In this document: piece after piece, positions 1 to 37,850 of the stretch
Layout: every line of letters begins with the position of its first letter
Position numbering within the stretch: the first letter of the stretch is position 1
Source: Escherichia phage RB43
DNA length: 64,000 nt
Sequence record: NC_007023.1
Strand: one strand, 5' to 3'
Notes under the pieces: generated by a model
What the model was told of the DNA's origin: nothing
The model's input: only the letters and a program-made list of their open reading frames with translations
Databases searched by the model: none
Made by a program: the position numbers and the translations under genes

Positions 1-939
1 TTAGTAGTGACTGAACCCTGCGGTTACATCGGTCATCACCTGATAACGACATACACGCATTTTGGCGTTGTCGTAATCTACTGGAATTGCTACCACATCG
101 CGAGGGTTAGCCTTAACGTGGATCACGCGCCCACGTCCACCGCCATAGTGAGGAAGATATGATTTAGCGGCAACATGCAAACCACACGAGCAAGTTTTGG
201 TTTTGTCTTCGTCTACCTGGTTGCGAGGCATTTTGACGATAGCACCAGGGCTGTTATCAAACTTGCCTGTTGCCATGTCTTTATAGTCTTCGCTAACACG
301 TTTCCATGCGTAGAAATCACCATCATCAGCCAGTTCGATATCGTTATGCACCAGGAAGCCATAAAGCTGATACACAGCATCACGGGACGGGTTTTGCATC
401 AGCTTTTCGAAGAAGTTCACCAGGTGTTCATACGGACGTTCATTATACATTTCACGAACGATTCGTTGGGTGATCCCTCCATCGAAAACGACATCTTTAT
501 ACAGCACTTTATGTCCGACGATCTTAATATTGCCTTTGCTGTACACTTTCAGGGCTTGCTTAGTGTTCAGCAATGCGGCTACACCTTCGATATCGCCTTT
601 AGTCAACAGCGCGTGTGCCTTTTCGAAGTTCGGGTGAGTAGAATCAGCAGTCAGGATTTCGCCGTTGATTACCAGAGTAATGAATGATTCAGAACCAATC
701 ATTTTCGAACTCACATCCGTTTTCGGTAGTGCTTTCGATTCTTCCTGCTCATACTTCGCGTGTTGTTCGGTAATAACGCGCCCGATGGTTCGGACGCTTA
801 CACCAAATTGTTTAGCCAGTGCGGTTTTGTTTGCGCTGGTTAGAAAGCCCTCATAGACTGCTTTCTTTTGTACATCATCGAGGATCTTAACAGTTCTCAT
901 TATTTCCACCGTATTAATTTTACCATAATCATCAGTCAT
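1..939 (-). CDS. rIIB: rIIB-like protein (C-terminal 312 codons of the continuous 1049-aa rII ORF)
   Basis: Internal ATG at 939..937 preceded by GGAAGA; HTH-like ALAKQFGVSVRTIGRV near N-term; conserved C-terminal FYAWK/FDNSPG/HPRD motifs; 312 codons to TAA at 3..1, the length I recall for T4 rIIB; no stop separates it from rIIA part. Confidence 0.55.
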   Translation of the reverse strand: MTDDYGKINTVEIMRTVKILDDVQKKAVYEGFLTSANKTALAKQFGVSVRTIGRVITEQHAKYEQEESKALPKTDVSSKMIGSESFITLVINGEILTADSTHPNFEKAHALLTKGDIEGVAALLNTKQALKVYSKGNIKIVGHKVLYKDVVFDGGITQRIVREMYNERPYEHLVNFFEKLMQNPSRDAVYQLYGFLVHNDIELADDGDFYAWKRVSEDYKDMATGKFDNSPGAIVKMPRNQVDEDKTKTCSCGLHVAAKSYLPHYGGGRGRVIHVKANPRDVVAIPVDYDNAKMRVCRYQVMTDVTAGFSHY

Positions 940-3150
940 CGCTTTATCTTCCAGAATATACCGGATTTGATAGCCATCACTGTTTCTCAGGATTCGAGCA
1001 ATTAACGGATTGCGTTTAGCGAAAATCTCATATTGTTCGTCAACGCGTTCAATCATTGCATGTTCCATTTCTTCATGTCGGGCCTGTGCCACACGAATAG
1101 ACGGGTTCTTTGCTTCTGTCGTTTCACCGTCTTCTGTAGTCTGCATCAACACTTTACCATCAAGCGTGTTCAGAATATTGTATCGACGCGCATCATAACG
1201 GTTTTTAACCATGCGATCAAGGCTAATACCCAACTTTTCATATAGCTCTTTAACGGAATCACGGTACTTTTTCGAAACAAAAGCCGGATACCAGTTAGGT
1301 TTCATTTCTTTTGCAGTCTTGCAGAACAATTCAGCAAGGAACGTATCAAGACAAATCATGCTGCTGTCTGGGATCTTATTCCATAACGAATTACGGAGTG
1401 TATACACCACACGAACACCAGAGATTTCCATCACAGTAGCCAGGTTATTCATGATGTTTGACATCGAGAAGTTATTCGACTCACTCAACGAACTGTAATC
1501 ATCAACACCATACAGACGCAATGCGTATGCAGATTCGAGGTTGACAAACTCCGCTTTCGTGAGGAACAAATCTTCTTTGTTCAAATCGCCATTGATCCCG
1601 ACCGTGTAACGGTATGCTGTCGGCGTTTTCGGACGCGGTTCGGAATCTTTATCGATTGTTTCGCGTGTTGCTCTCCAGCGACGGCGATCCTCAGTATACA
1701 CTTCCAGTTCTTCCGTCATTTCACTGGTTTTCAGATAAACGATTTCAGATTCATCATAGTAACCGTTTTTGATGAAGTTCTGTAAATTATCCTGATTTCT
1801 GTTCGGATCGTATTCAATAAAGTTCATACGGTAAGTTTTGTGAAGCATACAGTACCCGATAGCATACGCACGTACAGACTTCGCGTTGTTATCGTTCTGT
1901 AACAGATACAGGTTTCTTTGCTTCCACGGGTGCAGCATACGCGTAATATCCTGGCGGCGCATGGTTTCAGATTTATACGCGTCGTAACGACGACCAGAAC
2001 CTGTGCGCTCAAAACTGCAATCTTTACCGTCATACACGTTCGCCCAGTATCCCCAGATCTGCATACTGGTGACCAGGTCTTTACTATTGAAGTGCATCAC
2101 CAGTTCAGCAAGGGTATTTTTCCCTACTTTAAACTGCTTATCACGGGTAACGAAAGTCTGCAACAGCGTTGGTAAATTTTGATACCAAATAACCTTTTCA
2201 CGCGTCGTTTTCAGTTTAGCAAATTCTGCTGATAGTTCTGAATAATACTGGTCGTTGATTGCTCCGAGTCGATCCATGATAACTTTCTTGGTGATCTTAT
2301 CAAGGCTTAACTCTTCGCGTGACGGCATGAAATCCAGAGAACCCAGCGGAAAATCCAAAATGTACGCATAGCTACTGTTCTGGTAGCAATAAAACAGGGA
2401 TTCTCTGAACATATCCAGGTCAATAGGATAGCAAATGTTACCCATACGCGCATACAAACCGGAATAATGCTTTGACTTATAACTGATGATCCCGCGATTA
2501 TTTGCTTCTGTCGGTTGCCAGTTGATATCCAGTTGAACACCAATAAAGCGAGGACGAATAGTTGTAAACGCTTCGTACACACGAGCGGCTTCACGTTCCC
2601 ATTCTGGGATATCTTCGACGTTAACCGGAACTGTTACCTGAACGCCGTTAGGTTCATCAGTTTCTACAGCATACAGAGGGTCAATGTACGGTTCGCCGTC
2701 TTCATTGAGGTAAGCAGTATAACCGCGCTTCATGCCGTCCTGAATTGATTCTACGGTGAATGTTGAGGTGTAGCAGAACGGTGATTTGCTACCCAGCCCC
2801 AACGCCCCGATCAGGTCGTCGGTGTCGGTTTTGGTTGATTCGAAATAAACGGTGAATACTTCGTTCACCATGTAATCACTCAGGCCAGTACCGTAATCAC
2901 GAACGATGAAACGAGGATCGAGAACAGTCGGTAACTGAACGTCAAAGCGATCCATGTTACCCGCTACGATATGACCATCAATCGCGTTACAAGAAATCTC
3001 ACGAATGATTGCGCGGATCTTGTATTTGTAGATTGTGGATGAAAGGATTTTGAACGCTTTCTTACCTGCTCTCATTCCAAAAGCTCTACGGCTTCCAGAC
3101 TCGATACCTACACGATGAACTGTGCTTGCTTGGCTTTCGCGTAACTTCAT
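940..3150 (-). CDS. rIIA: rIIA-like protein (about 737 codons, reads in frame into rIIB)
   Basis: ORF track 1..3150; N-terminal ATPase-like motifs (NAIDGH, DYGTGLS, GLGSKSPF) resembling T4 rIIA. Confidence 0.7.
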
Positions 3151-3160
3151 TGTTTATATC

Positions 3161-3394
3161 TCACTTGTTGAAAATAATGTTTTCGCATGAATACTTTGTC
3201 GGTTTCTTGTCGATACCGTATTCAAGCGGTGTACACATACGATCCATATAATCGTAAATTTCTTGTTTTCGTTTTTCTTCCTTTTTCATTTCAAGGATAC
3301 CAAAAACGATAGCAGTCACAAAACACATAGCGATAGTTGAAAGAATAACGATAGCTACATATTTTGATGTGTTTGGTGCGCTGTATGGTCTCAT
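3161..3394 (-). CDS. small membrane protein (hypothetical)
   Basis: 77-aa ORF with hydrophobic helix VAIVILSTIAMCFVTAIVFGIL; ATG overlaps upstream stop (ATGA). Confidence 0.4.
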   Translation of the reverse strand: MRPYSAPNTSKYVAIVILSTIAMCFVTAIVFGILEMKKEEKRKQEIYDYMDRMCTPLEYGIDKKPTKYSCENIIFNK

Positions 3395-3933: not shown

Positions 3934-4005
3934 TTTACATCCTCCTAATCGGTAGCGGGAGTAATATAACAAAAAAGCCCCTGCATCGCAAGGGCTTAAT
4001 GTAAA

Positions 4006-5296
4006 TTATTTCAATTTCTTCGAAAGTTCTTTCAAATCATTGAGATATTCAATTTTCGGGGTTGTCTCTTCCCAGTATTTCAGTTGCTTGCGCAATTCAT
4101 TTGCTTCATCTTCCAGCTTTTGACGTTCGTCAGTAGTTAGATGATAGGATGTTCATCGCAACCAGTATTTCGGCGTGGTTTTCGCAACCCTTCCATGTTG
4201 ATACGAATTGAACCGCTTCACTACGACTCAAGCCCTTCAACGAGTCAGGAGATTCAATCATCTGGTCGATAAATTCAACCTTAGCCAGCGCCCTTGCAAG
4301 TGCTTCCTTCGCTTCCTGTATGCGTTTTTCGATGCGCTGTTGATAAACCGTCATACGGATATCAACGAAATCTTTCAACAACGTTTCAGGACGTTCATAT
4401 GAATGCAACTTACCATTGAAGATAACGTTGATGTTCGGGTTTGAGTTCTCAATCAATCCAAAATCTTTCAGGATCTTTTCATGGGTAAGCCCGTTGGCAT
4501 ACTCACGTTTAAGGGTTATCTCATAGCGAAAATCTTCTTTCGATAGATCCTTATAGCTTACGATACACCCTTTCTCTTCCAGCTTATCCAGAATCGCAAT
4601 ATATTTCACGCGATCATACTTGACCGGAATCTCAGTGATCACCAGTTTAGTTTTACCCTGGAGTTCGTACTTACCGTACATTGTCCCGTCTACAATGTCA
4701 CCTTTAAATTGTGGATATTTCAGGTCAAGCGTGAAATCTTTCCCGTTCAGGTAACTAACACATCCATTCAGAACCGAAACCGGATCATGTGGTGGAATGT
4801 TTGTCGCGTATCCTTTCGCGATCCCTCTGAACCCGTTAACCAACACCATAGGAATGATTGGCAGATAATAGGCTGGCGGTAGGTGTTCAGGATCTTCATG
4901 CGGGATTGTTAAATCTTCGTCCATGTAGATAGCCTTGAACAGCGGAGACAGCTTACAGTAAATGTAACGAGGTGCGCCAGGCTTCTTAACCAGACGGGAA
5001 CCAAAGAACCCATCACGATCGAAAAGCGGGATATTATTGCACCAGTGCGCCGCCATGAGAGACAACGCTTCTTCAACGGATGTTTCCCCGTGGTGATACC
5101 CGTATATTGCAACACCGCCAGCAATAGATGCTACTTTCTGGAAGCCTGAACCTCCTTTCGCTGCTGAATGCACGAAGAAACGGTGAACGGGTTTGAACCC
5201 GTCTACCAGGTGCGGGATAGCACGAGAATAAATTGTGTAAAGGGCAAACGTAAGCCCTTCAACCTGTACAACGTCTTTAATACTTCTTTCCATCAT
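4006..5296 (-). CDS. 52: DNA topoisomerase II medium (GyrA-like) subunit gp52, reading frame broken near 4133-4152
   Basis: N-term AIPHLVDGFKPVHRF GyrA signature; 388-aa ORF 4130..5296 ends prematurely and a coding-like +1 frame (DERQKLEDEANELRKQ...KKLK) continues to TAA at 4008..4006. Confidence 0.7.
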
Positions 5297-7185
5297 TTCA
5301 CCGAAAATTTATGTTTTCCGTCAACCCAGTCTTTACGCGGATCGGACTCTTCACCGAAACACAGTTCCAGAACGTCTTTGTAATCGTCGCCCAGTACGAT
5401 TGTATCGTATTTTAACTGGTCGCCCAACACGCGATCGTAATCTGATTTACGCAAAGAACCCAGACCTTTGATGTATCGTACCTCTTTCGCTTTGTCGCGG
5501 AAAGGTACAAAATCGTCCATAGAGTAGAACCATTTTTCATCTTTTCCGATTTTAGCAATGATAATCGGTGTACGGATATACCGGATCTTTTTCTTCTCGA
5601 ACAACTCAGGCCAACGACTAAAGAACGCAATCAGTAGGGTGAGAATATCGCCCCCGTCAACGTCCGCATCCACCATGATCCCGATATTGTCGTATGCCAT
5701 TTCGGAAGAGTCGCCTGGATGGAGATTCAGGATCGCCATTAACTCGAATAACTCTTTGTTTTTGAGAATGTCGGTAAAGCTCATTCCCCAGGTGTTCAAC
5801 GGTTTGCCACGTAGCGGAAATGCGCCTTGTGTCTCTTCGTTTCTGCACTCGATAAACTGCCCTACAGCGGAATCACCTTCGGTCAGAAACAAAGTGGTTT
5901 CGACTCCATCGGTATCAATCCCTGATGCGGGAACATGTTTTGCAATCTTCGCCTTTTTCGCTTTCTTTTTCGCTTTCGTAATTGCTGCGGCTTCTGCTGC
6001 TTGCTTGCGAATAAGAGCGGATTCAATGATCGGAGTGATTATTTCAGAAGTATCCATAATCTGCTTCGCGATCTTTTTGTAATTCAATCCGGCGTGATTG
6101 TTGAACTCTCCAGCAGTATTGGTCAGTTTTTCTTTCGTCTGACTGTCAAAAGCTGGTGCATTGAAGTTATGCAAAAACACGACCAAAGTCAAGCATTCTT
6201 TTACACGGGCTTTCGGGATCTCGATAGCGTGTTTCTTCTTGATCATCGGTTCCAGTTCGGCATAGATACCATCAATCATACAATCGACGTGTACGCCACC
6301 GTTTTTTGTGTCCAGACCGTTGACGAATGATTTTTGTTTGAATCCGTCTTCTGTGCTCGCCAGGATGAAACTAATTTTGTTGTTTGTCTGCGTGATTGTG
6401 CTGTCGCCATACATCGCGCCATACATCGCAAACTTATTCGGTAATGTTTCACCGTTGTATGTGAATTTAACCGAAGGGAACGCCACTGCAAGCGCCATAA
6501 GGCGATCTTTGATGACTTCCTTTGTTTCTTCGTCGATGCCATCAACACCGAAGATTGAGAAATCAGGGGTAAACTTAACAGTGGTTCCCTGTTCTTTCGT
6601 CGGGCTTGTACGGTAATCCATGTTCTGTGCGCCGTCAGTACAGTTGATCGTGACTTTGCGCTTACCGTTGGATGTTTCACCGATAAAGATTGAACTGTAA
6701 CAGTTCGTCAGGAAAGAACCTACACCGTTCATCCCCATTGTTACGCGGTTTTCATCATCGAAGTTTGAACCAGATTTTGCCATAGTCCAGGCTGCAACAG
6801 GTTTAGGAACAATTTTCCCTTCTGGTGTTCTCACGTCATCTTGTGGAATACCGCGCCCGTTATCTGAGATTGTCACCAGATTATGATCAATCTTCACTTC
6901 GATTCTGTTCGCGAATTTAAAATCTGTACGGATCGCTTCGTCGATTGAGTTGTCGAGAATTTCATTGATGATTTTCACCAGACCTTCGACATATTCCACT
7001 TTGCGGAATTTACCCATGATGAAGCGTTCGTGTGCTTCGCGGTTCACTGAACCCACATACATGTTAGGACGTTTGCGAATGTGATCGCGGTCACTCAGGC
7101 AGAAAGATTCATCAACCTTTACGCCTTTTGGCGTTTCCGGTACTTTCTGCGGTTCGTCTTCGTCCATTAAGAAATCTAAACTCAT
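5293..7185 (-). CDS. 39: DNA topoisomerase II large (GyrB-like) subunit, gp39 and gp60 equivalents in one ORF
   Basis: GHKL ATPase motifs (ILDNSIDEA, ISDNGRGIP) and Toprim motif (TEGDSA) in one 630-aa protein; ATG at 7185 after AAAGAGGTG. Confidence 0.85.
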   Translation of the reverse strand: MSLDFLMDEDEPQKVPETPKGVKVDESFCLSDRDHIRKRPNMYVGSVNREAHERFIMGKFRKVEYVEGLVKIINEILDNSIDEAIRTDFKFANRIEVKIDHNLVTISDNGRGIPQDDVRTPEGKIVPKPVAAWTMAKSGSNFDDENRVTMGMNGVGSFLTNCYSSIFIGETSNGKRKVTINCTDGAQNMDYRTSPTKEQGTTVKFTPDFSIFGVDGIDEETKEVIKDRLMALAVAFPSVKFTYNGETLPNKFAMYGAMYGDSTITQTNNKISFILASTEDGFKQKSFVNGLDTKNGGVHVDCMIDGIYAELEPMIKKKHAIEIPKARVKECLTLVVFLHNFNAPAFDSQTKEKLTNTAGEFNNHAGLNYKKIAKQIMDTSEIITPIIESALIRKQAAEAAAITKAKKKAKKAKIAKHVPASGIDTDGVETTLFLTEGDSAVGQFIECRNEETQGAFPLRGKPLNTWGMSFTDILKNKELFELMAILNLHPGDSSEMAYDNIGIMVDADVDGGDILTLLIAFFSRWPELFEKKKIRYIRTPIIIAKIGKDEKWFYSMDDFVPFRDKAKEVRYIKGLGSLRKSDYDRVLGDQLKYDTIVLGDDYKDVLELCFGEESDPRKDWVDGKHKFSVK

Positions 7186-7230
7186 ATTCACCTCTTTATT
7201 AGTTCAGTCATTATATAGGGTTCTATGAAA

Positions 7231-7252
7231 AAGAAAACCCCTTTCGGGGTTT
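7231..7252 (-). terminator. rho-independent terminator hairpin
   Basis: Minus strand ACCCCGAAAGGGGT followed by T-run immediately after stop of 7251..7460 gene. Confidence 0.55.
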
Positions 7253-7460
7253 AAGCATCTTTGATTTTTTGAAGAATGGGTATCAGTTCTTCAACTTGCA
7301 TTCGTGTTAACGCGATCTCAAAACCATATTGATTAATTCGCGTGATTTGAGACACCGATTCTGAATCAAATTCAATAACCAGTCCATCACAATACTCTTG
7401 CGGTTGAAACCCATCGGCATATCCGTAATCATCGGGTATGGTTTCGGTTATTTTAGACAT
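7251..7460 (-). CDS. hypothetical protein (69 aa)
   Basis: ORF with ATG (MSKITETIP) 8 nt after AAAAGGTGG. Confidence 0.4.
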   Translation of the reverse strand: MSKITETIPDDYGYADGFQPQEYCDGLVIEFDSESVSQITRINQYGFEIALTRMQVEELIPILQKIKDA

Positions 7461-29387: not shown

Positions 29388-30368
29388 TTACAGATCCAGC
29401 AGTTTATCCAGGTCGTCATCACCGGAAGTGTTATCCAGATCAAACGGAGTATCGTCTTCTGGTACAGAACCACCAACATTCAGTTGATTGACACCGCCAG
29501 ATTCTTTAACACTACCGGACTGATTGCCATTATCGAAGTTTTTCAGATCCGCGTCAAATGAGTTTAACTCGCTATCCAAATCAGCACCAGCGCTTGAACC
29601 AGCACCCATTGCAGCACCGCCACCGAATACTTTGGTGAACTTCGCGGTCAGTTCAGCAGTAGGCTTAAACTGATCAGGTGCGGTAATAGGACGGAGGTCG
29701 CTCATACCTTCGAAAATCGCTTTCTGAACTGCTTCATCGTCGATACCTTTAATCGGGCCAGGTACACCGAATGTGCTGTCGTCATAGTTAGGCCAGTCGC
29801 CTACTTTCTTCGCTTTCAGGGTGAAGTTAGCACCAGCGAACGGACAGGTTACAGCAATACCAGGTTCATCCAGATCAGGGTTGCCAGCGATGGTTGCGGT
29901 GATTTTATCCATAATCTTCTTACCGAAGCGGAATTTAAACACTTTACCTTCGTTTTCTGGATTGCCTGGATCTTTAATTACCAGAATGTTAGCCCAGAAT
30001 GATTGTTTACGTCCGATTTGCCCCAACAGTTTATCGGCTTCACCGCCTTTGTTGGCTTTTGCTTTTTCGAACAGGTCGTTATCAGTAATATACTGACATA
30101 CAGGACAACCATCATAATCACCGTGAGTAGACGGGCAATTTTCGATATACCACTGATTCTGTTTTTTGAATGAATGGTTGACGATACGGACGAATGCTAA
30201 TTCATCATCGGAGCGGTTAGGCAGGAAACGAATCACTGCGGAACCGTTTTTCTGTGCATCCAGAGTTAATTTCCACTCTTTTTCGTCTTTCTGAAAACCG
30301 GAGGAACCTTTCAGGGCTGCAACTTGTTCTTGAAGTTTAGTTGGATCTTGACGTTTGAAAAAGGACAT
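29388..30368 (-). CDS. 32: single-stranded DNA-binding protein gp32
   Basis: EWKLTLDAQKNGSAVIRFLP, zinc ligands, acidic C-terminal tail; colinear with T4 gp32. Confidence 0.9.
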   Translation of the reverse strand: MSFFKRQDPTKLQEQVAALKGSSGFQKDEKEWKLTLDAQKNGSAVIRFLPNRSDDELAFVRIVNHSFKKQNQWYIENCPSTHGDYDGCPVCQYITDNDLFEKAKANKGGEADKLLGQIGRKQSFWANILVIKDPGNPENEGKVFKFRFGKKIMDKITATIAGNPDLDEPGIAVTCPFAGANFTLKAKKVGDWPNYDDSTFGVPGPIKGIDDEAVQKAIFEGMSDLRPITAPDQFKPTAELTAKFTKVFGGGAAMGAGSSAGADLDSELNSFDADLKNFDNGNQSGSVKESGGVNQLNVGGSVPEDDTPFDLDNTSGDDDLDKLLDL

Positions 30369-30371
30369 ATA

Positions 30372-31037
30372 TTATTTCTCGTTTAGTTTAATTAAGGTTT
30401 GTTTCATTAAGTTTCGGTATTTTACGATTTCTTCGTTACTGATTTCAACTAATTTTCTGTACGCGTTTAGTTTTTTGCTAAATTCATTCCAGACGAAATC
30501 TGTAGCAATTTCATCGTGTTTATTTATGATGTCTAAAAACGAATCGAGGATCAAGAAAGATTCGTAAGAAATCACCCCTGATTGAACGAGTTTACTGATA
30601 TAAGAAGTGGACGATTTAACGCTATACTGAAACACCGTTGATAGGGGTATACCTTTCATGCGGGAAAATTCATACAGGTTTTTTACATCTTCCACGAAAA
30701 TATTATCAATTCGTCGCAACTTACCAATGTATTGACGATAAAACACGATCGTATCTTCGTCTACATCCCCAACCCAAAAGTCGGGGTTAGCCACCATATT
30801 GCAGAGTAGTATAAGGTAAATCTCCTTGAAAGTAAACCTTTCGGCTAACTTTGTGAAAAAATACCTATCTTTTCTCTTTTGGAACGCTTGTTCAGTGATC
30901 TTTATTTCCCATTTGTACTTGATCGCGTCATACCTTCCCGCAAAGTGATTTTTCATCACCAGATACAGTTTGTATACCGCAATCGGTTTCAAACGGGAAT
31001 TAGCGTCTGAACTTCCAAACGGGGTTTTAAATTTCAC
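30372..31037 (-). CDS. 59: helicase loader gp59
   Basis: AVYKLYLVMKNHFAGRYD..FFTKLAERF colinear with T4 gp59. Confidence 0.85.
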   Translation of the reverse strand: MKFKTPFGSSDANSRLKPIAVYKLYLVMKNHFAGRYDAIKYKWEIKITEQAFQKRKDRYFFTKLAERFTFKEIYLILLCNMVANPDFWVGDVDEDTIVFYRQYIGKLRRIDNIFVEDVKNLYEFSRMKGIPLSTVFQYSVKSSTSYISKLVQSGVISYESFLILDSFLDIINKHDEIATDFVWNEFSKKLNAYRKLVEISNEEIVKYRNLMKQTLIKLNEK

Positions 31038-31285
31038 ATGAAATCATCCAGAGTTTGCGTTGTTGTGTGGTCTTTAGCCACAGAAGGACGCAACAAATTA
31101 TTTTTGATTGCTTCATCGCTAATCTTGTCAATGATAGCTTTCGGAACAGTTTTATTCAACATGGAATAGTCGATACTATTTTCATCCATCCACTGTAACG
31201 TTGCTTCCATGTAGGTTGCCCCTTCTGAGGCAACCAGATTTTCGATGTACAAGCCTACTTCGGTTTTATTTCCGATTTCGCTCAT
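31034..31285 (-). CDS. 33: late transcription co-activator gp33
   Basis: 83 aa; C-terminal IIDKISDEAIKNNLLRPSV resembles T4 gp33; position upstream of 59. Confidence 0.65.
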   Translation of the reverse strand: MSEIGNKTEVGLYIENLVASEGATYMEATLQWMDENSIDYSMLNKTVPKAIIDKISDEAIKNNLLRPSVAKDHTTTQTLDDFM

Positions 31286-31286
31286 T

Positions 31287-31550
31287 TTACGCCTTATCGA
31301 TCACATCGTAAAGTTCGATCAGTTCGTTGTTTTGTTCTTCGAACTCGGTACGCGCCTGGTTGTGATACAGGTTGAACAGCTTGCTAAACGTTTTACCGTC
31401 GATGCCGTAGTCAGTTTTCGCTTTGGATTTGATATCTTTCAGCGTACCCTGATGAATTTCGATCTGGGTTTTGACGTTGGAAGCATCTTTGATCATGTCT
31501 TTGATTGCTTTGGCAATATCAGGGTTTTCTTGCAGTAATTCTACACTCAT
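31287..31550 (-). CDS. dsbA: dsDNA-binding protein DsbA
   Basis: YGIDGKTFSKLFNLYH..ELIELYDVI resembles T4 DsbA; position between rnh and 33. Confidence 0.6.
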   Translation of the reverse strand: MSVELLQENPDIAKAIKDMIKDASNVKTQIEIHQGTLKDIKSKAKTDYGIDGKTFSKLFNLYHNQARTEFEEQNNELIELYDVIDKA

Positions 31551-31559
31551 TTTGTTACC

Positions 31560-32495
31560 TCAAAAATCACTTAATTTTTCATACATACGGACAAGTTTGT
31601 TTTCCATGAAGTATTTCTCCATTTTGGCCTTGTTGCCCGTTTTCGGATTATTGTACGCTTTTTCAATTTCATCTGCAACATCTTTTGGAATAAAATCGAA
31701 ATCTCGTAGTTCTTCGTTTTCTCTGTACCGTGCGGCCCATTCAGGGGTCATGTGTACAGTTGGGTCGTCGGCTTCAAGCCACAATTCAAGTTCGTTCGCA
31801 CGAATTTGCGGTGCTCGTTCACCTTCCACTTTCGTAACAATATAGTCGTTTCTCATTTTAATACAAGCGATACTATCTTTTTTATCGCCCTTAATGATCT
31901 TCATACGTAAATCATTACGAGGTGTACCATACTTCGGCGTAACCCATTTCTTCTGGGTAGGCGACCATTGTCGAACACCTTGATATTTTTGCAGTGCCGT
32001 AAAGTCGCTATCTGCTGATACAATCAGGACTCGCTTACCTTGCGCTACTGCGTTTTTTGTAACGACACCTATAATATCATCGGCTTCTGCGAAGTCAACC
32101 CTCAAGCCTTTGTACGGAAGATTTTCGCGGATCTCGTCGTAAGTCGGGTGAAGGAAACCGTTCAAAAAATCCCAGTCCCATTCAGATTCCGCGTGTTCCA
32201 TTTGTCGTTTCTTTTTGTAGTACCAGGCTTTACTTCTTCGCCAATACTTGTTATCATCAAAGGCTAAGACAATTTCTGGATACTCACCTTTGAATTTAAC
32301 CACGTTGTACCGGATTGTGTCAAGAACAATGTGACGAATAATTTGTTGATTGATGTCTTTCTGGTCTTTCGGCTTGAAGTTGTTCATCAACGTCGCTACC
32401 GAAAGGTTCGATATATCTACACACATCACATCAACAGGATCGTCGTCATTACTCATAAGACTGTTCAGATTGAACATGCTTGCAAATGAAGACAT
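31560..32495 (-). CDS. rnh: RNase H (5'-3' exonuclease, FEN-like)
   Basis: 311 aa colinear with T4 RNase H (ADDIIGV, SADSDF, GDKKDSIA). Confidence 0.85.
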   Translation of the reverse strand: MSSFASMFNLNSLMSNDDDPVDVMCVDISNLSVATLMNNFKPKDQKDINQQIIRHIVLDTIRYNVVKFKGEYPEIVLAFDDNKYWRRSKAWYYKKKRQMEHAESEWDWDFLNGFLHPTYDEIRENLPYKGLRVDFAEADDIIGVVTKNAVAQGKRVLIVSADSDFTALQKYQGVRQWSPTQKKWVTPKYGTPRNDLRMKIIKGDKKDSIACIKMRNDYIVTKVEGERAPQIRANELELWLEADDPTVHMTPEWAARYRENEELRDFDFIPKDVADEIEKAYNNPKTGNKAKMEKYFMENKLVRMYEKLSDF

Positions 32496-32525
32496 ATCAA
32501 TACCTCTTGTTGTTGAATGGTGATG

Positions 32526-32553
32526 ATTATAGTGATCACTTTTTCAAAGTCAA
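32526..32553 (-). promoter_or_regulatory. sigma70-like promoter (TTGACT-N16-TATAAT) for rnh operon
   Basis: Read on minus strand upstream of rnh SD AGAGGT. Confidence 0.5.
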
Positions 32554-32572
32554 TAGATCACTTCAAGATTCT

Positions 32573-32711
32573 GAGCGAAGCGAAGGACACGAACGTAGTG
32601 AGTGTCTAACTACAGAACTACACTTTTAAATTTTTATATTTTATATATAGAGAAAAATGTAGTTTTTGGTATGTTTTTTAACCAATATTACCTATCCGTT
32701 TCGCTTCGCTC
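32573..32711. repeat. 12-bp perfect inverted repeat pair (GAGCGAAGCGAA / TTCGCTTCGCTC) flanking 115-bp AT-rich core
   Basis: Arms at 32573-32584 and 32700-32711; extra CGCTTCG copy at 32719-32725. Confidence 0.7.
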
Positions 32712-32762
32712 ACGGAAACGCTTCGCGTTGTTTTTATTAAATAATATAGATTGGAAGTAGGT

Positions 32763-32791
32763 TTGAAACCCGTAATTCCATCAGCTATAAT
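32763..32791 (+). promoter_or_regulatory. sigma70-like promoter (TTGAAA-N17-TATAAT) for gene 55
   Basis: Near-consensus hexamers 26 nt upstream of gp55 ATG. Confidence 0.55.
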
Positions 32792-32816
32792 GAATGTATT
32801 CAATTTGGAGAATATA

Positions 32817-33332
32817 ATGACTACTAAGATTTATGCAGATAATGATAAGCTGTATCCGGTAATGTGTAAGTGGAAACAGCAGATCCGTGAAACTGGTGAT
32901 CGCAAAATGCCTGATGAACTGGGTATTGCAATCATGAACATCGCTCATGGTTTAGCCCGTCGATACAACTTCAACCGTTATTCCGAAGATTGGAAAATGG
33001 ATATGATCGATGATGGTATTTCCGCTACGATTTCCGGTTTACATAATTTTGATGAAACCAAATATACAAACGTTTATGGGTATATCAACAAGGCTTGCTG
33101 GCAAGCGTTTGTAACCCGCATTCTTTACGAGAAGAAAGAGAACGCGAAAAAATACAAATACTTCCTGGAACACGTTTACGATAGTGACGATACTGATATG
33201 ACCGCGATAGCTGATGAAACTTTCATTCAGGATATCCATGATAAACTTAATCAGTACGAAGAGTCTGCGAAAAAACCTAAAGATAAAATCGAGGTTGTGG
33301 ACGAATCGCCAACTTTGGAAATGTTTCTATGA
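32817..33332 (+). CDS. 55: late sigma factor gp55
   Basis: ATG after GGAG; GLHNFDETKYTN and DETFIQDI colinear with T4 gp55. Confidence 0.85.
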   Translation: MTTKIYADNDKLYPVMCKWKQQIRETGDRKMPDELGIAIMNIAHGLARRYNFNRYSEDWKMDMIDDGISATISGLHNFDETKYTNVYGYINKACWQAFVTRILYEKKENAKKYKYFLEHVYDSDDTDMTAIADETFIQDIHDKLNQYEESAKKPKDKIEVVDESPTLEMFL

Positions 33333-37136: not shown

Positions 37137-37850
37137 ATGATTAACGAAAAAATGACACATCGCGAAGCGTTGGAAATCTTAGGGGCTACTGGTACTGAAT
37201 CCAAAGCCGAAATGTCCAAACTCTTCAAACGTGCTTCTCTGCGTAATCACCCCGATCGTGGTGGTAGCACAGAACTCATGCAAAAAATTAACCAGGCATA
37301 TGACGTAGTAACGAGAACAAACAGTTCTGGCGAAACTATGATGGATATGCGAGCGCGTCACGCAGCGAATAAAAAAGCGTGGGAAGAAAAACTGGATGCG
37401 TATTTTGTTGTTGCTAAGAACTATTTCAGCACGAAATTTAACGCACAGGAATTCGCTGAATACTTCACCAAATACACCGGACAACCGACGACCTTCACAC
37501 AGGAAGTCAAGAAAGATACAATTTCCGTATCTGCTGTGTTCCGTTTCACTTCTGGTGATGCTCACTTTGATTTCGCTTTCTACTGCAAGCCGGAAGAAGG
37601 TAAAGGTTTGATGTCTCCTGATGCAAGCGCATTGGGTAGTGTTTCTGTCAATACTCTGGTATTGGTTGGAACCAAAAAACATAAAATGGCAAGCCGTGAA
37701 TATCAATGGGGCAAAAACCCAGATAAGATCACACCAGAAAGCCTGTTCCCGTCCAAGAAACTTGCATCAATTTTCAGCCCGACACAAAAGAACCTCAAGT
37801 TCAAACGTGCTGACTATATGACTTCTTTCCGCAAGCACTTAGACGCATAA
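37137..37850 (+). CDS. J-domain (DnaJ-like) protein
   Basis: ATG after GAGGAA; EALEILG...KLFKRASLRNHPDRGGS with HPD tripeptide. Confidence 0.65.
   Translation: MINEKMTHREALEILGATGTESKAEMSKLFKRASLRNHPDRGGSTELMQKINQAYDVVTRTNSSGETMMDMRARHAANKKAWEEKLDAYFVVAKNYFSTKFNAQEFAEYFTKYTGQPTTFTQEVKKDTISVSAVFRFTSGDAHFDFAFYCKPEEGKGLMSPDASALGSVSVNTLVLVGTKKHKMASREYQWGKNPDKITPESLFPSKKLASIFSPTQKNLKFKRADYMTSFRKHLDA

Follow-up and report, generated by a model that had tools for sequence, protein, structure and literature searches.

Among the T-even phages, the type II topoisomerases of T2 and T6 are built from two subunits and that of T4 from three (PMC11461880). In T4, the Toprim domain is broken by an insertion of ~70 aa, and the codons for DADHDG are immediately followed by the bypass, at gene 60 codon 46 (T4 sequence; PMC11461880). 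The PDB entries for T6 gp39 (8ylu_C) and for an engineered T4 gp39-gp60 fusion (8yo3_C) were described in a Nature Communications paper of 2024, together with the E...DxD metal-binding motif of the T6 enzyme and relaxation assays for the enzymes of T4 and T6. The catalytic 'RY' dyad belongs to the partner subunit, gp52, as do the tower and the coiled coil (PMC11461880).

The insertion has been described as a MobA element of ~1.1 kb, which inserts at aa 466-473 of a 'parental' fused gene where it extends ORF1 at the C-terminus and ORF2 at the N-terminus and brings in a bypass cassette. In some Aeromonas phages, the gene has been re-fused and retains the extensions of the element, which is called 'hit and run' (Manning & Atkins, bioRxiv 10.1101/2022.08.31.505936). 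The locus compared here with these systems lies in a window of 64,000 nt from Escherichia phage RB43 (NC_007023.1).

Identity and Start of Gene 39+60

The reading frame at 5293-7185 of the window is almost certainly gene 39+60 of coliphage RB43 (genus Pseudotevenvirus), encoding an ancestral, one-piece, GyrB-like subunit of a type IIA topoisomerase. In the list of open reading frames, the mechanical reading covers 632 aa on the minus strand, from a GTG at 7191 to the TGA at 5293-5295. The sequence upstream of the start, read directly, is AAGAGGTGAAT-ATG. The best start is the ATG at 7185, which is preceded at a distance of 5 nt by a GAGG, whereas the GTG at 7191 falls inside this ribosome-binding site. 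In Citrobacter phage Miller, the homologous ATG is the annotated start.

Translation of the resulting 630 codons reveals no internal in-frame stop, and a protein look-up returned an exact match of the product to AAX78527.1 of RB43. The same protein is encoded, with 100% identity, by RB43-GVA and by phage Miller, and with 95.7% identity by RB16. The continuity of the ORF therefore does not result from indel errors of the kind found elsewhere in this record. At the DNA level, the stretch 4000-7400 is 100% identical to RB43-GVA (HE981739) apart from one gap, 99.6% identical to the Citrobacter phages Miller and CfP1, and 91.7% identical to RB16, in whose record the homologue is named 'gp39plus60 DNA topoisomerase II large subunit'. 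The ORF is thus confirmed as a real one-piece topoisomerase gene, far beyond chance. It is also an ordinary and already annotated one, present in GenBank as AAX78527.1 and labelled '39plus60' in RB16. In RB16, Miller, CfP1, Lw1 and other Pseudotevenvirus phages, gp39plus60 is the same gene, at the same position and with the same length (630-631 aa). Gene 39+60 of RB43 does not differ from those of the RB16/Miller/CfP1/Lw1-type phages; only its frameshifted neighbour, gene 52, is particular to the RB43 record.

Domain Organization

The protein carries the complete set of domains of a GyrB-type subunit in a single chain (Table 1), the HATPase_c, DNA_gyraseB and Toprim models of Pfam all scoring above their gathering cut-offs. 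The claims made in the sequence-only reading, namely a single ORF of 630 aa with no coding gap that joins the ATPase and Toprim domains in one protein, are both borne out.

Table 1. Features of the topoisomerase locus of RB43 (positions in the 64,000-nt window).
Feature	Position	Strand	Evidence and remarks
Strong terminator-like hairpin	3975..3997	-	Consensus scan; 10-pair stem then TTTTGTT; 9 nt past the stop of the 428-aa gene 52
Extra base 4147 and last 46 codons of gene 52 (YHLTTDERQKL...KKLK, then stop), intact, out of frame	4006..4147	-	
Gene 52 (GyrA-type subunit) as read in the RB43 record	4130..5293	-	387 aa; exact match to AAX78526.1 / YP_238980.1 'gp52'
Gene 39+60, unsplit large (GyrB-type) subunit of phage type IIA topoisomerase	5293..7185	-	630 aa; ATG 7185, TGA 5295-5293
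C-terminal region past Toprim, corresponding to most of T4 gp60	5317..5574	-	Pfam TOPRIM_C 27.6 bits, just below the cut-off of 29
Toprim domain, in one piece	5584..5895	-	Pfam Toprim 27.2 bits, cut-off 23.1
Equivalent of the MobA-element insertion site	5652..5704	-	Plain coding sequence here (..SSEMAYDNIGIMVDADVDG, then GDIL..); BLASTP junction, alignment, DNA
Transducer domain with QTK loop	5983..6387	-	Pfam DNA_gyraseB 57.7 bits, cut-off 27
GHKL ATPase domain	6559..6987	-	Pfam HATPase_c 41.7 bits, cut-off 26.4
Ribosome-binding site GAGGTG of gene 39+60	7189..7194	-	GAGG (7194-7191) 5 nt before the ATG; annotated equivalently in Miller
Terminator-like hairpin (AAACCCCGAAAGGGGTTT then T-run) after the preceding gene	7235..7252	-	Consensus scan; annotated terminator in Miller

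All three signatures by which a GHKL ATPase is recognized were identified: the N-box (ExxxNxxD) in EILDNSIDE (aa 75-83), the G1 box (DxGxG) in DNGRGIP (aa 108-114) and the G2 box (GxxGxG) in GMNGVGS (aa 151-157). The lysine motif of the QTK loop, QTKEKL, is located at aa 349-354. In the Toprim domain, the catalytic glutamate lies in EGDSA (aa 436-440), followed by PLRGK (aa 457-461) and the metal-binding DADVDG (aa 506-511). The EGDSA glutamate and the DxD metal-binding motif are thus found within the same chain, as expected of a B-type subunit.

The gp39 proteins of T6, T2 and RB14 (PDB 8YLU, 8YOD) likewise combine the GHKL, transducer and Toprim domains in one piece, and all catalytic motifs are common to them and the RB43 protein. 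In comparison with these proteins, the RB43 type is extended by an acidic stretch of ~21 aa at the N-terminus and is slightly longer at the C-terminus. RB14 gp60plus39 is 49% identical over residues 30-621 of the RB43 protein. T6 gp39 (8ylu_C) matches the RB43 protein in a single stretch covering residues 27-625 (E 1.3e-196), whereas the engineered T4 gp39-gp60 fusion (8yo3_C) matches it in two stretches.

The Site of the T4 Break and Bypass

For the comparison with T4, genes 39 and 60 were taken from NC_000866. The gene 60 query was made by joining exon 1 (2990-2853) and exon 2 (2802-2458), omitting the annotated 50-nt gap TAGCC...ATTGGA. By BLASTP, with residues counted on the 632-aa reading, T4 gp39 residues 9-473 correspond to residues 32-496 (50% identity, E 1e-155) and T4 gp60 residues 28-158 to residues 495-623 (45% identity, E 2e-39). 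These matches abut at residues 495/496, with zero extra residues separating them. Nothing in the RB43 protein corresponds to the C-terminal 43 residues of T4 gp39 or to the N-terminal 27 of gp60, either by BLASTP or in a multiple alignment of the RB43 protein with RB14 gp60plus39, T4 gp39 and T4 gp60. The T4 proteins are homologous to the RB43 protein over all shared parts, and the function of the enzyme is presumably the same.

The multiple alignment shows the RB43 protein to be collinear with the unsplit RB14 gp60plus39 (605 aa) across the break and bypass site. At the site, RB43 reads ..LHPGDSSE-MAYDNIGIMVDADVDG-GDIL.. and RB14 reads ..LVLGEKAENLNYHNIAIMTDADHDGLGSIY.., the RB43 protein being 1-2 residues shorter there. 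The DNA equivalent to the MobA target is identical to that of RB14 at 29 of 48 nt.

The sequence-only reading had placed a possible ~50-nt insertion with an in-frame stop between the ATPase and Toprim parts. This location requires correction: the split of T4 lies inside the Toprim domain, with EGDSA in gp39 and DxDxDG in gp60, and the place for such an insertion is therefore at ~5652-5704. The T4 gp39/gp60 break corresponds to about nt 5704, and the T4 take-off/landing point to the boundary after Gly511, at 5653/5652. Examination of this interval revealed continuous coding sequence only, the DNA at the bypass-equivalent site reading GAC GGG GGC GAT ATT in frame.

None of the features of the T4 arrangement was detected. 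After the DxDxDG codons, there is no GGA-stop take-off, no ~50-nt gap with a hairpin and no landing GGA at the site. A search for the T4 take-off hairpin (GGATAGCCTTCGGGCTATC) across the 64,000-nt window, allowing up to 3 mismatches, gave 0 matches. Between the gp39-like and gp60-like parts there is neither a mobA gene nor a remnant of one, and no intervening DNA. At ~aa 466-473 (RB14 numbering), no ORF break with element-encoded extensions was found, the ORF being continuous. In comparison with T4, RB43 is thus without the split, the mobA remnant, the ~70-aa Toprim insertion, the GGA-UAG take-off, the 50-nt gap and the landing GGA. The proposal of an arrangement lacking the 39/60 split and its 50-nt bypass therefore holds, since T4 gp39 and gp60 abut on the RB43 protein and the latter is collinear with that of RB14. 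The alignment with T4 gp39, gp60 and fused proteins, suggested as a check of this proposal, extended end-to-end with the T6 and RB14 proteins.

A continuous gene might also have arisen by re-fusion after the loss of a MobA element, in the 'hit and run' manner of the Aeromonas phage clade. Such re-fused genes do exist (Manning & Atkins, bioRxiv 10.1101/2022.08.31.505936), and the gp60-type family PHROG 7229 matches residues 473-624 of the RB43 protein (E 7e-41), as it would match any unsplit homologue. However, re-fused genes retain an insertion homologous to the extensions of the element, and the 43 gp39 and 27 gp60 residues noted above are without counterpart in RB43, whose protein is shorter than that of RB14 at the site rather than longer. 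It is therefore highly unlikely that gene 39+60 is a re-fused product; as no inserted residues are present at the site, the idea of a scar of a former MobA element was rejected and is effectively refuted.

Relationship to Other Topoisomerases

The RB43 protein matches PHROG 543, 'DNA topoisomerase II large subunit', over residues 1-628 of 630 (E 2e-251). This full-length match, together with the gene for a gp52-type partner immediately downstream, places it among the unsplit T-even-type large subunits. Among solved structures, the RB43 protein is closest to those of phages T6 and T4 and next closest to eukaryotic Topo II. Acquisition of the ORF from a host, as a bacterial gyrB or parE, is scarcely credible: GyrB and ParE models are its best NCBIfam matches, but these reach only 159-209 bits overall against curated cut-offs of 723-900 (TIGR01059, TIGR01055 and TIGR01058 giving 201, 159 and 175 bits against 882, 723 and 900), so that it is a member of none of them, the closest structures are those of phages, and the whole neighbourhood (rIIA, rIIB, gene 52) is of T4 type. 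The far-below-cut-off NCBIfam scores and the PHROG 543 match argue for a phage-type enzyme rather than a host gyrB or parE.

The one-piece form dominates among related phages. The stretch 4000-7400 was matched by 174 phage records (Pseudotevenvirus-type). At least 80% of it is present at a single location in 172 of them, and the best 20 of the 174 matches each consist of one aligned piece. When the T4 60-mobA-39 region was used as the query, 528 phage records matched. At least 80% of this query is covered, i.e., the insert is carried, in 42 records, and most of the remaining matches cover 61%, which corresponds to the unsplit gene, as in RB14, ime09 and phiD1. The insert is thus absent from ~480 of the 528 T4-like records, and about nine in ten of T4's nearest relatives have the gene in one piece. 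The description of the split as T4-specific was consequently too narrow, the insert being found in these 42 records and the MobA element having been reported in 28 genomes of 6 clades (Manning & Atkins, bioRxiv 10.1101/2022.08.31.505936).

Gene 52 and Flanking Signals

The product of gene 52 matches Pfam DNA_topoisoIV (E 1e-70) and has the catalytic Arg-Tyr pair at aa 109-110; in its frame-corrected form, it matches PHROG 551 (E 2e-183). The ATG of gene 52 overlaps the TGA of gene 39+60 (TGATG; AAATGATGG), and a second in-frame ATG is located at 5296. This overlap of stop and start suggests that translation of gene 52 may be coupled to that of gene 39+60.

In RB43, gene 52 follows directly after gene 39+60, whereas in T4 it lies at 163,876-165,204, ~6.2 kb from gene 60, beyond the rII genes and across rIIA, rIIB, denB, ndd, stp and ac. 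The RB43 stretch begins at the rIIB stop codon, as do the RB16 and Miller records. That replication genes are clustered in RB43 and RB16 has been noted previously (Petrov et al. 2010; PMC2993671).

The two-gene topoisomerase unit is bracketed by two terminator-like hairpins, that at 7252-7235 forming its upstream edge and that at 3997-3975 its downstream edge. A search for a sigma-70-type promoter directly upstream of gene 39+60 gave 6 sites where 8.4 were expected, i.e., nothing beyond chance. A MotA-box-like TGCTT near 7255 was considered as part of a middle promoter and rejected, as it is ~35 nt away from the nearest TATAAT. Such a distance is too long for a middle promoter of the T4 type.

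Single-Base Differences in the RB43 Record

Over the 64 kb, the RB43 record differs from RB43-GVA at 25 positions outside the gfp cassette region. Five of these are substitutions. The other 20 are single-base indels, comprising both gains and losses, and several occur as pairs. RB43-GVA has a separate propagation history of ~20 years (PMC3157838). The first 11.4 kb contain four extra bases (927, 3955, 4147 and 10249), all absent from RB43-GVA, Miller and RB16; those at 3955 and 10249 are both non-coding.

The extra base at 4147, a G, shifts the frame of gene 52 46 codons before its conserved end, resulting in a protein of 387 instead of 428 aa. The length of gp52 is 428 aa in RB43-GVA, Miller and RB16, and 428-435 aa among the other cluster members listed. 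Conservation of the lost tail, YHLTTDERQKL..., extends to T4 gp52, and the strong terminator is positioned 9 nt past the conserved gene 52 stop, not past the truncated one. The extra base at 927, an A, joins rIIA (749 aa elsewhere) to rIIB (299 aa) in a 1049-aa ORF at 1-3150. This 1049-aa fusion is the GenBank entry 'RIIA-RIIB membrane-associated', which is unique to this RB43 record.

The extra bases at 4147 and 927 are probably base-calling errors, because indels exceed substitutions and some of the indels are paired. A programmed +1 frameshift in gene 52 was also considered and rejected. At the indel (AUC CUA UCA), re-pairing in the +1 frame is impossible for both the Ile-tRNA and the Leu-tRNA; moreover, the extra base is missing in RB43-GVA, Miller and RB16, and gp52 of the listed cluster members measures 428-435 aa. 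It is very unlikely that the insertions are real mutations of the sequenced stock, which would imply a viable phage with a gp52 lacking its last 46 residues and a natural rIIA-rIIB fusion of 1049 aa. If real, the frameshift in gene 52 would impair the holoenzyme in that stock, and the reading of gene 39+60 would be unaffected.

With ~20 single-base indels per 64 kb relative to RB43-GVA, at least two of which give misleading gene models (the truncated gp52 and 'RIIA-RIIB'), other oddities of this stretch of the RB43 record should be compared with RB43-GVA before they are believed.

Proposed Function and Origin of the One-Piece Gene

From its homology to the T6 and T4 enzymes of known structure, the gene 39+60 product is predicted to pair with gp52. 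The tower, the coiled coil and the winged-helix domain bearing the catalytic Arg-Tyr would come from gp52, and the resulting A2B2 enzyme would drive, at the expense of ATP, the passage of a duplex through a transient double-strand break. Both the activity and the subunit stoichiometry of the RB43 enzyme are predicted from homology to the T-even enzymes (~50% identity).

An unbroken gene represents the ancestral condition as well as the usual one, and gene 39+60 is in one piece because it has kept this condition. The Toprim-coding region of T4, and of a minority of other myoviruses, was entered by a MobA homing-endonuclease element, which gave rise to genes 39 and 60 and added short new termini and the 50-nt bypass cassette. 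This element never entered the RB43 lineage, or left no trace in it. Gene 39+60 of RB43 is of use only as a standard comparator, free of the insert, for the gene-60 bypass of T4.

Organization of the topoisomerase genes

The uninterrupted large-subunit gene of the RB43 type IIA topoisomerase (gene 39+60) is followed directly by gene 52, which encodes the GyrA-type partner, and the stop and start of the two genes overlap at positions 5293-5296. The two genes form a gyrB-gyrA-like pair with terminator-like hairpins on both sides. In T4, by contrast, the large-subunit gene and gene 52 (163876-165204) lie ~6.2 kb apart, with the rII genes between them.

The large subunit of the RB43 type carries an acidic N-terminal extension (MSLDFLMDEDEPQKVPETPKGV..., aa 1-22, positions 7120-7185), which is missing from the T4 and RB14 proteins. 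In the re-sequenced RB43 (RB43-GVA, HE981739), the CDS begins at the second Met (position 7167) and is labelled “protein of unknown function”.

Between gene 52 and rIIA, an SprT-like ORF is found, followed by a smaller one (see table). The equivalent position in T4, from gene 60 to rIIA.1, is without any annotated ORF.

ORFs of RB43 located downstream of gene 52
Feature	Position	Strand	Support
SprT-like zinc-metalloprotease-domain protein, 180 aa	3391-3933	-	Pfam PF10263, E 2e-13; PHROG 6445
77-aa ORF, next after the SprT-like ORF	3161-3394		PHROG 7845

Single-base differences in the RB43 record

Comparison with RB43-GVA revealed 25 differences over 64 kb, namely single-base indels (n = 20) and substitutions (n = 5), apart from a gfp cassette which takes the place of positions 37145-37846 in RB43-GVA. 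Several indels are paired a few bases apart (13009/13011, 20017/20020, 28458, 48393/48395, 55051/55052).

Gene 52 (minus strand) contains, in the stretch 4006-4147, one extra base at position 4147, which is missing in RB43-GVA and in the related phages Miller and RB16. This base puts the gene out of frame, resulting in a product of 387 aa versus 428 aa, and T4 gp52 shares the conserved C-terminal part that is lost. This shortened protein is the one deposited publicly as AAX78526.1 / YP_238980.1. The extra base is probably a base-calling error of the original record.

Positions 1-3150 are read as a single 1049-aa ORF spanning rIIA and rIIB, because of one extra A at 927, nine codons ahead of the rIIA stop of the relatives. 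It is deposited in GenBank as “RIIA-RIIB membrane-associated” (AAX78523.1). The remaining 24 members of its protein cluster are 749 aa long, except for one of 724 aa, and rIIB has its own annotation in Miller and RB16, at 1-900. Further odd gene models of the window may likewise be artefacts of indels discordant with RB43-GVA.

Strand switch

The sign of both GC skew and AT skew flips near 32 kb (~30000-33000). Gene orientation, according to the RB43-GVA annotation, also changes there from minus to plus, and given this coincidence, the ~32-kb position is a divergent transcription point.
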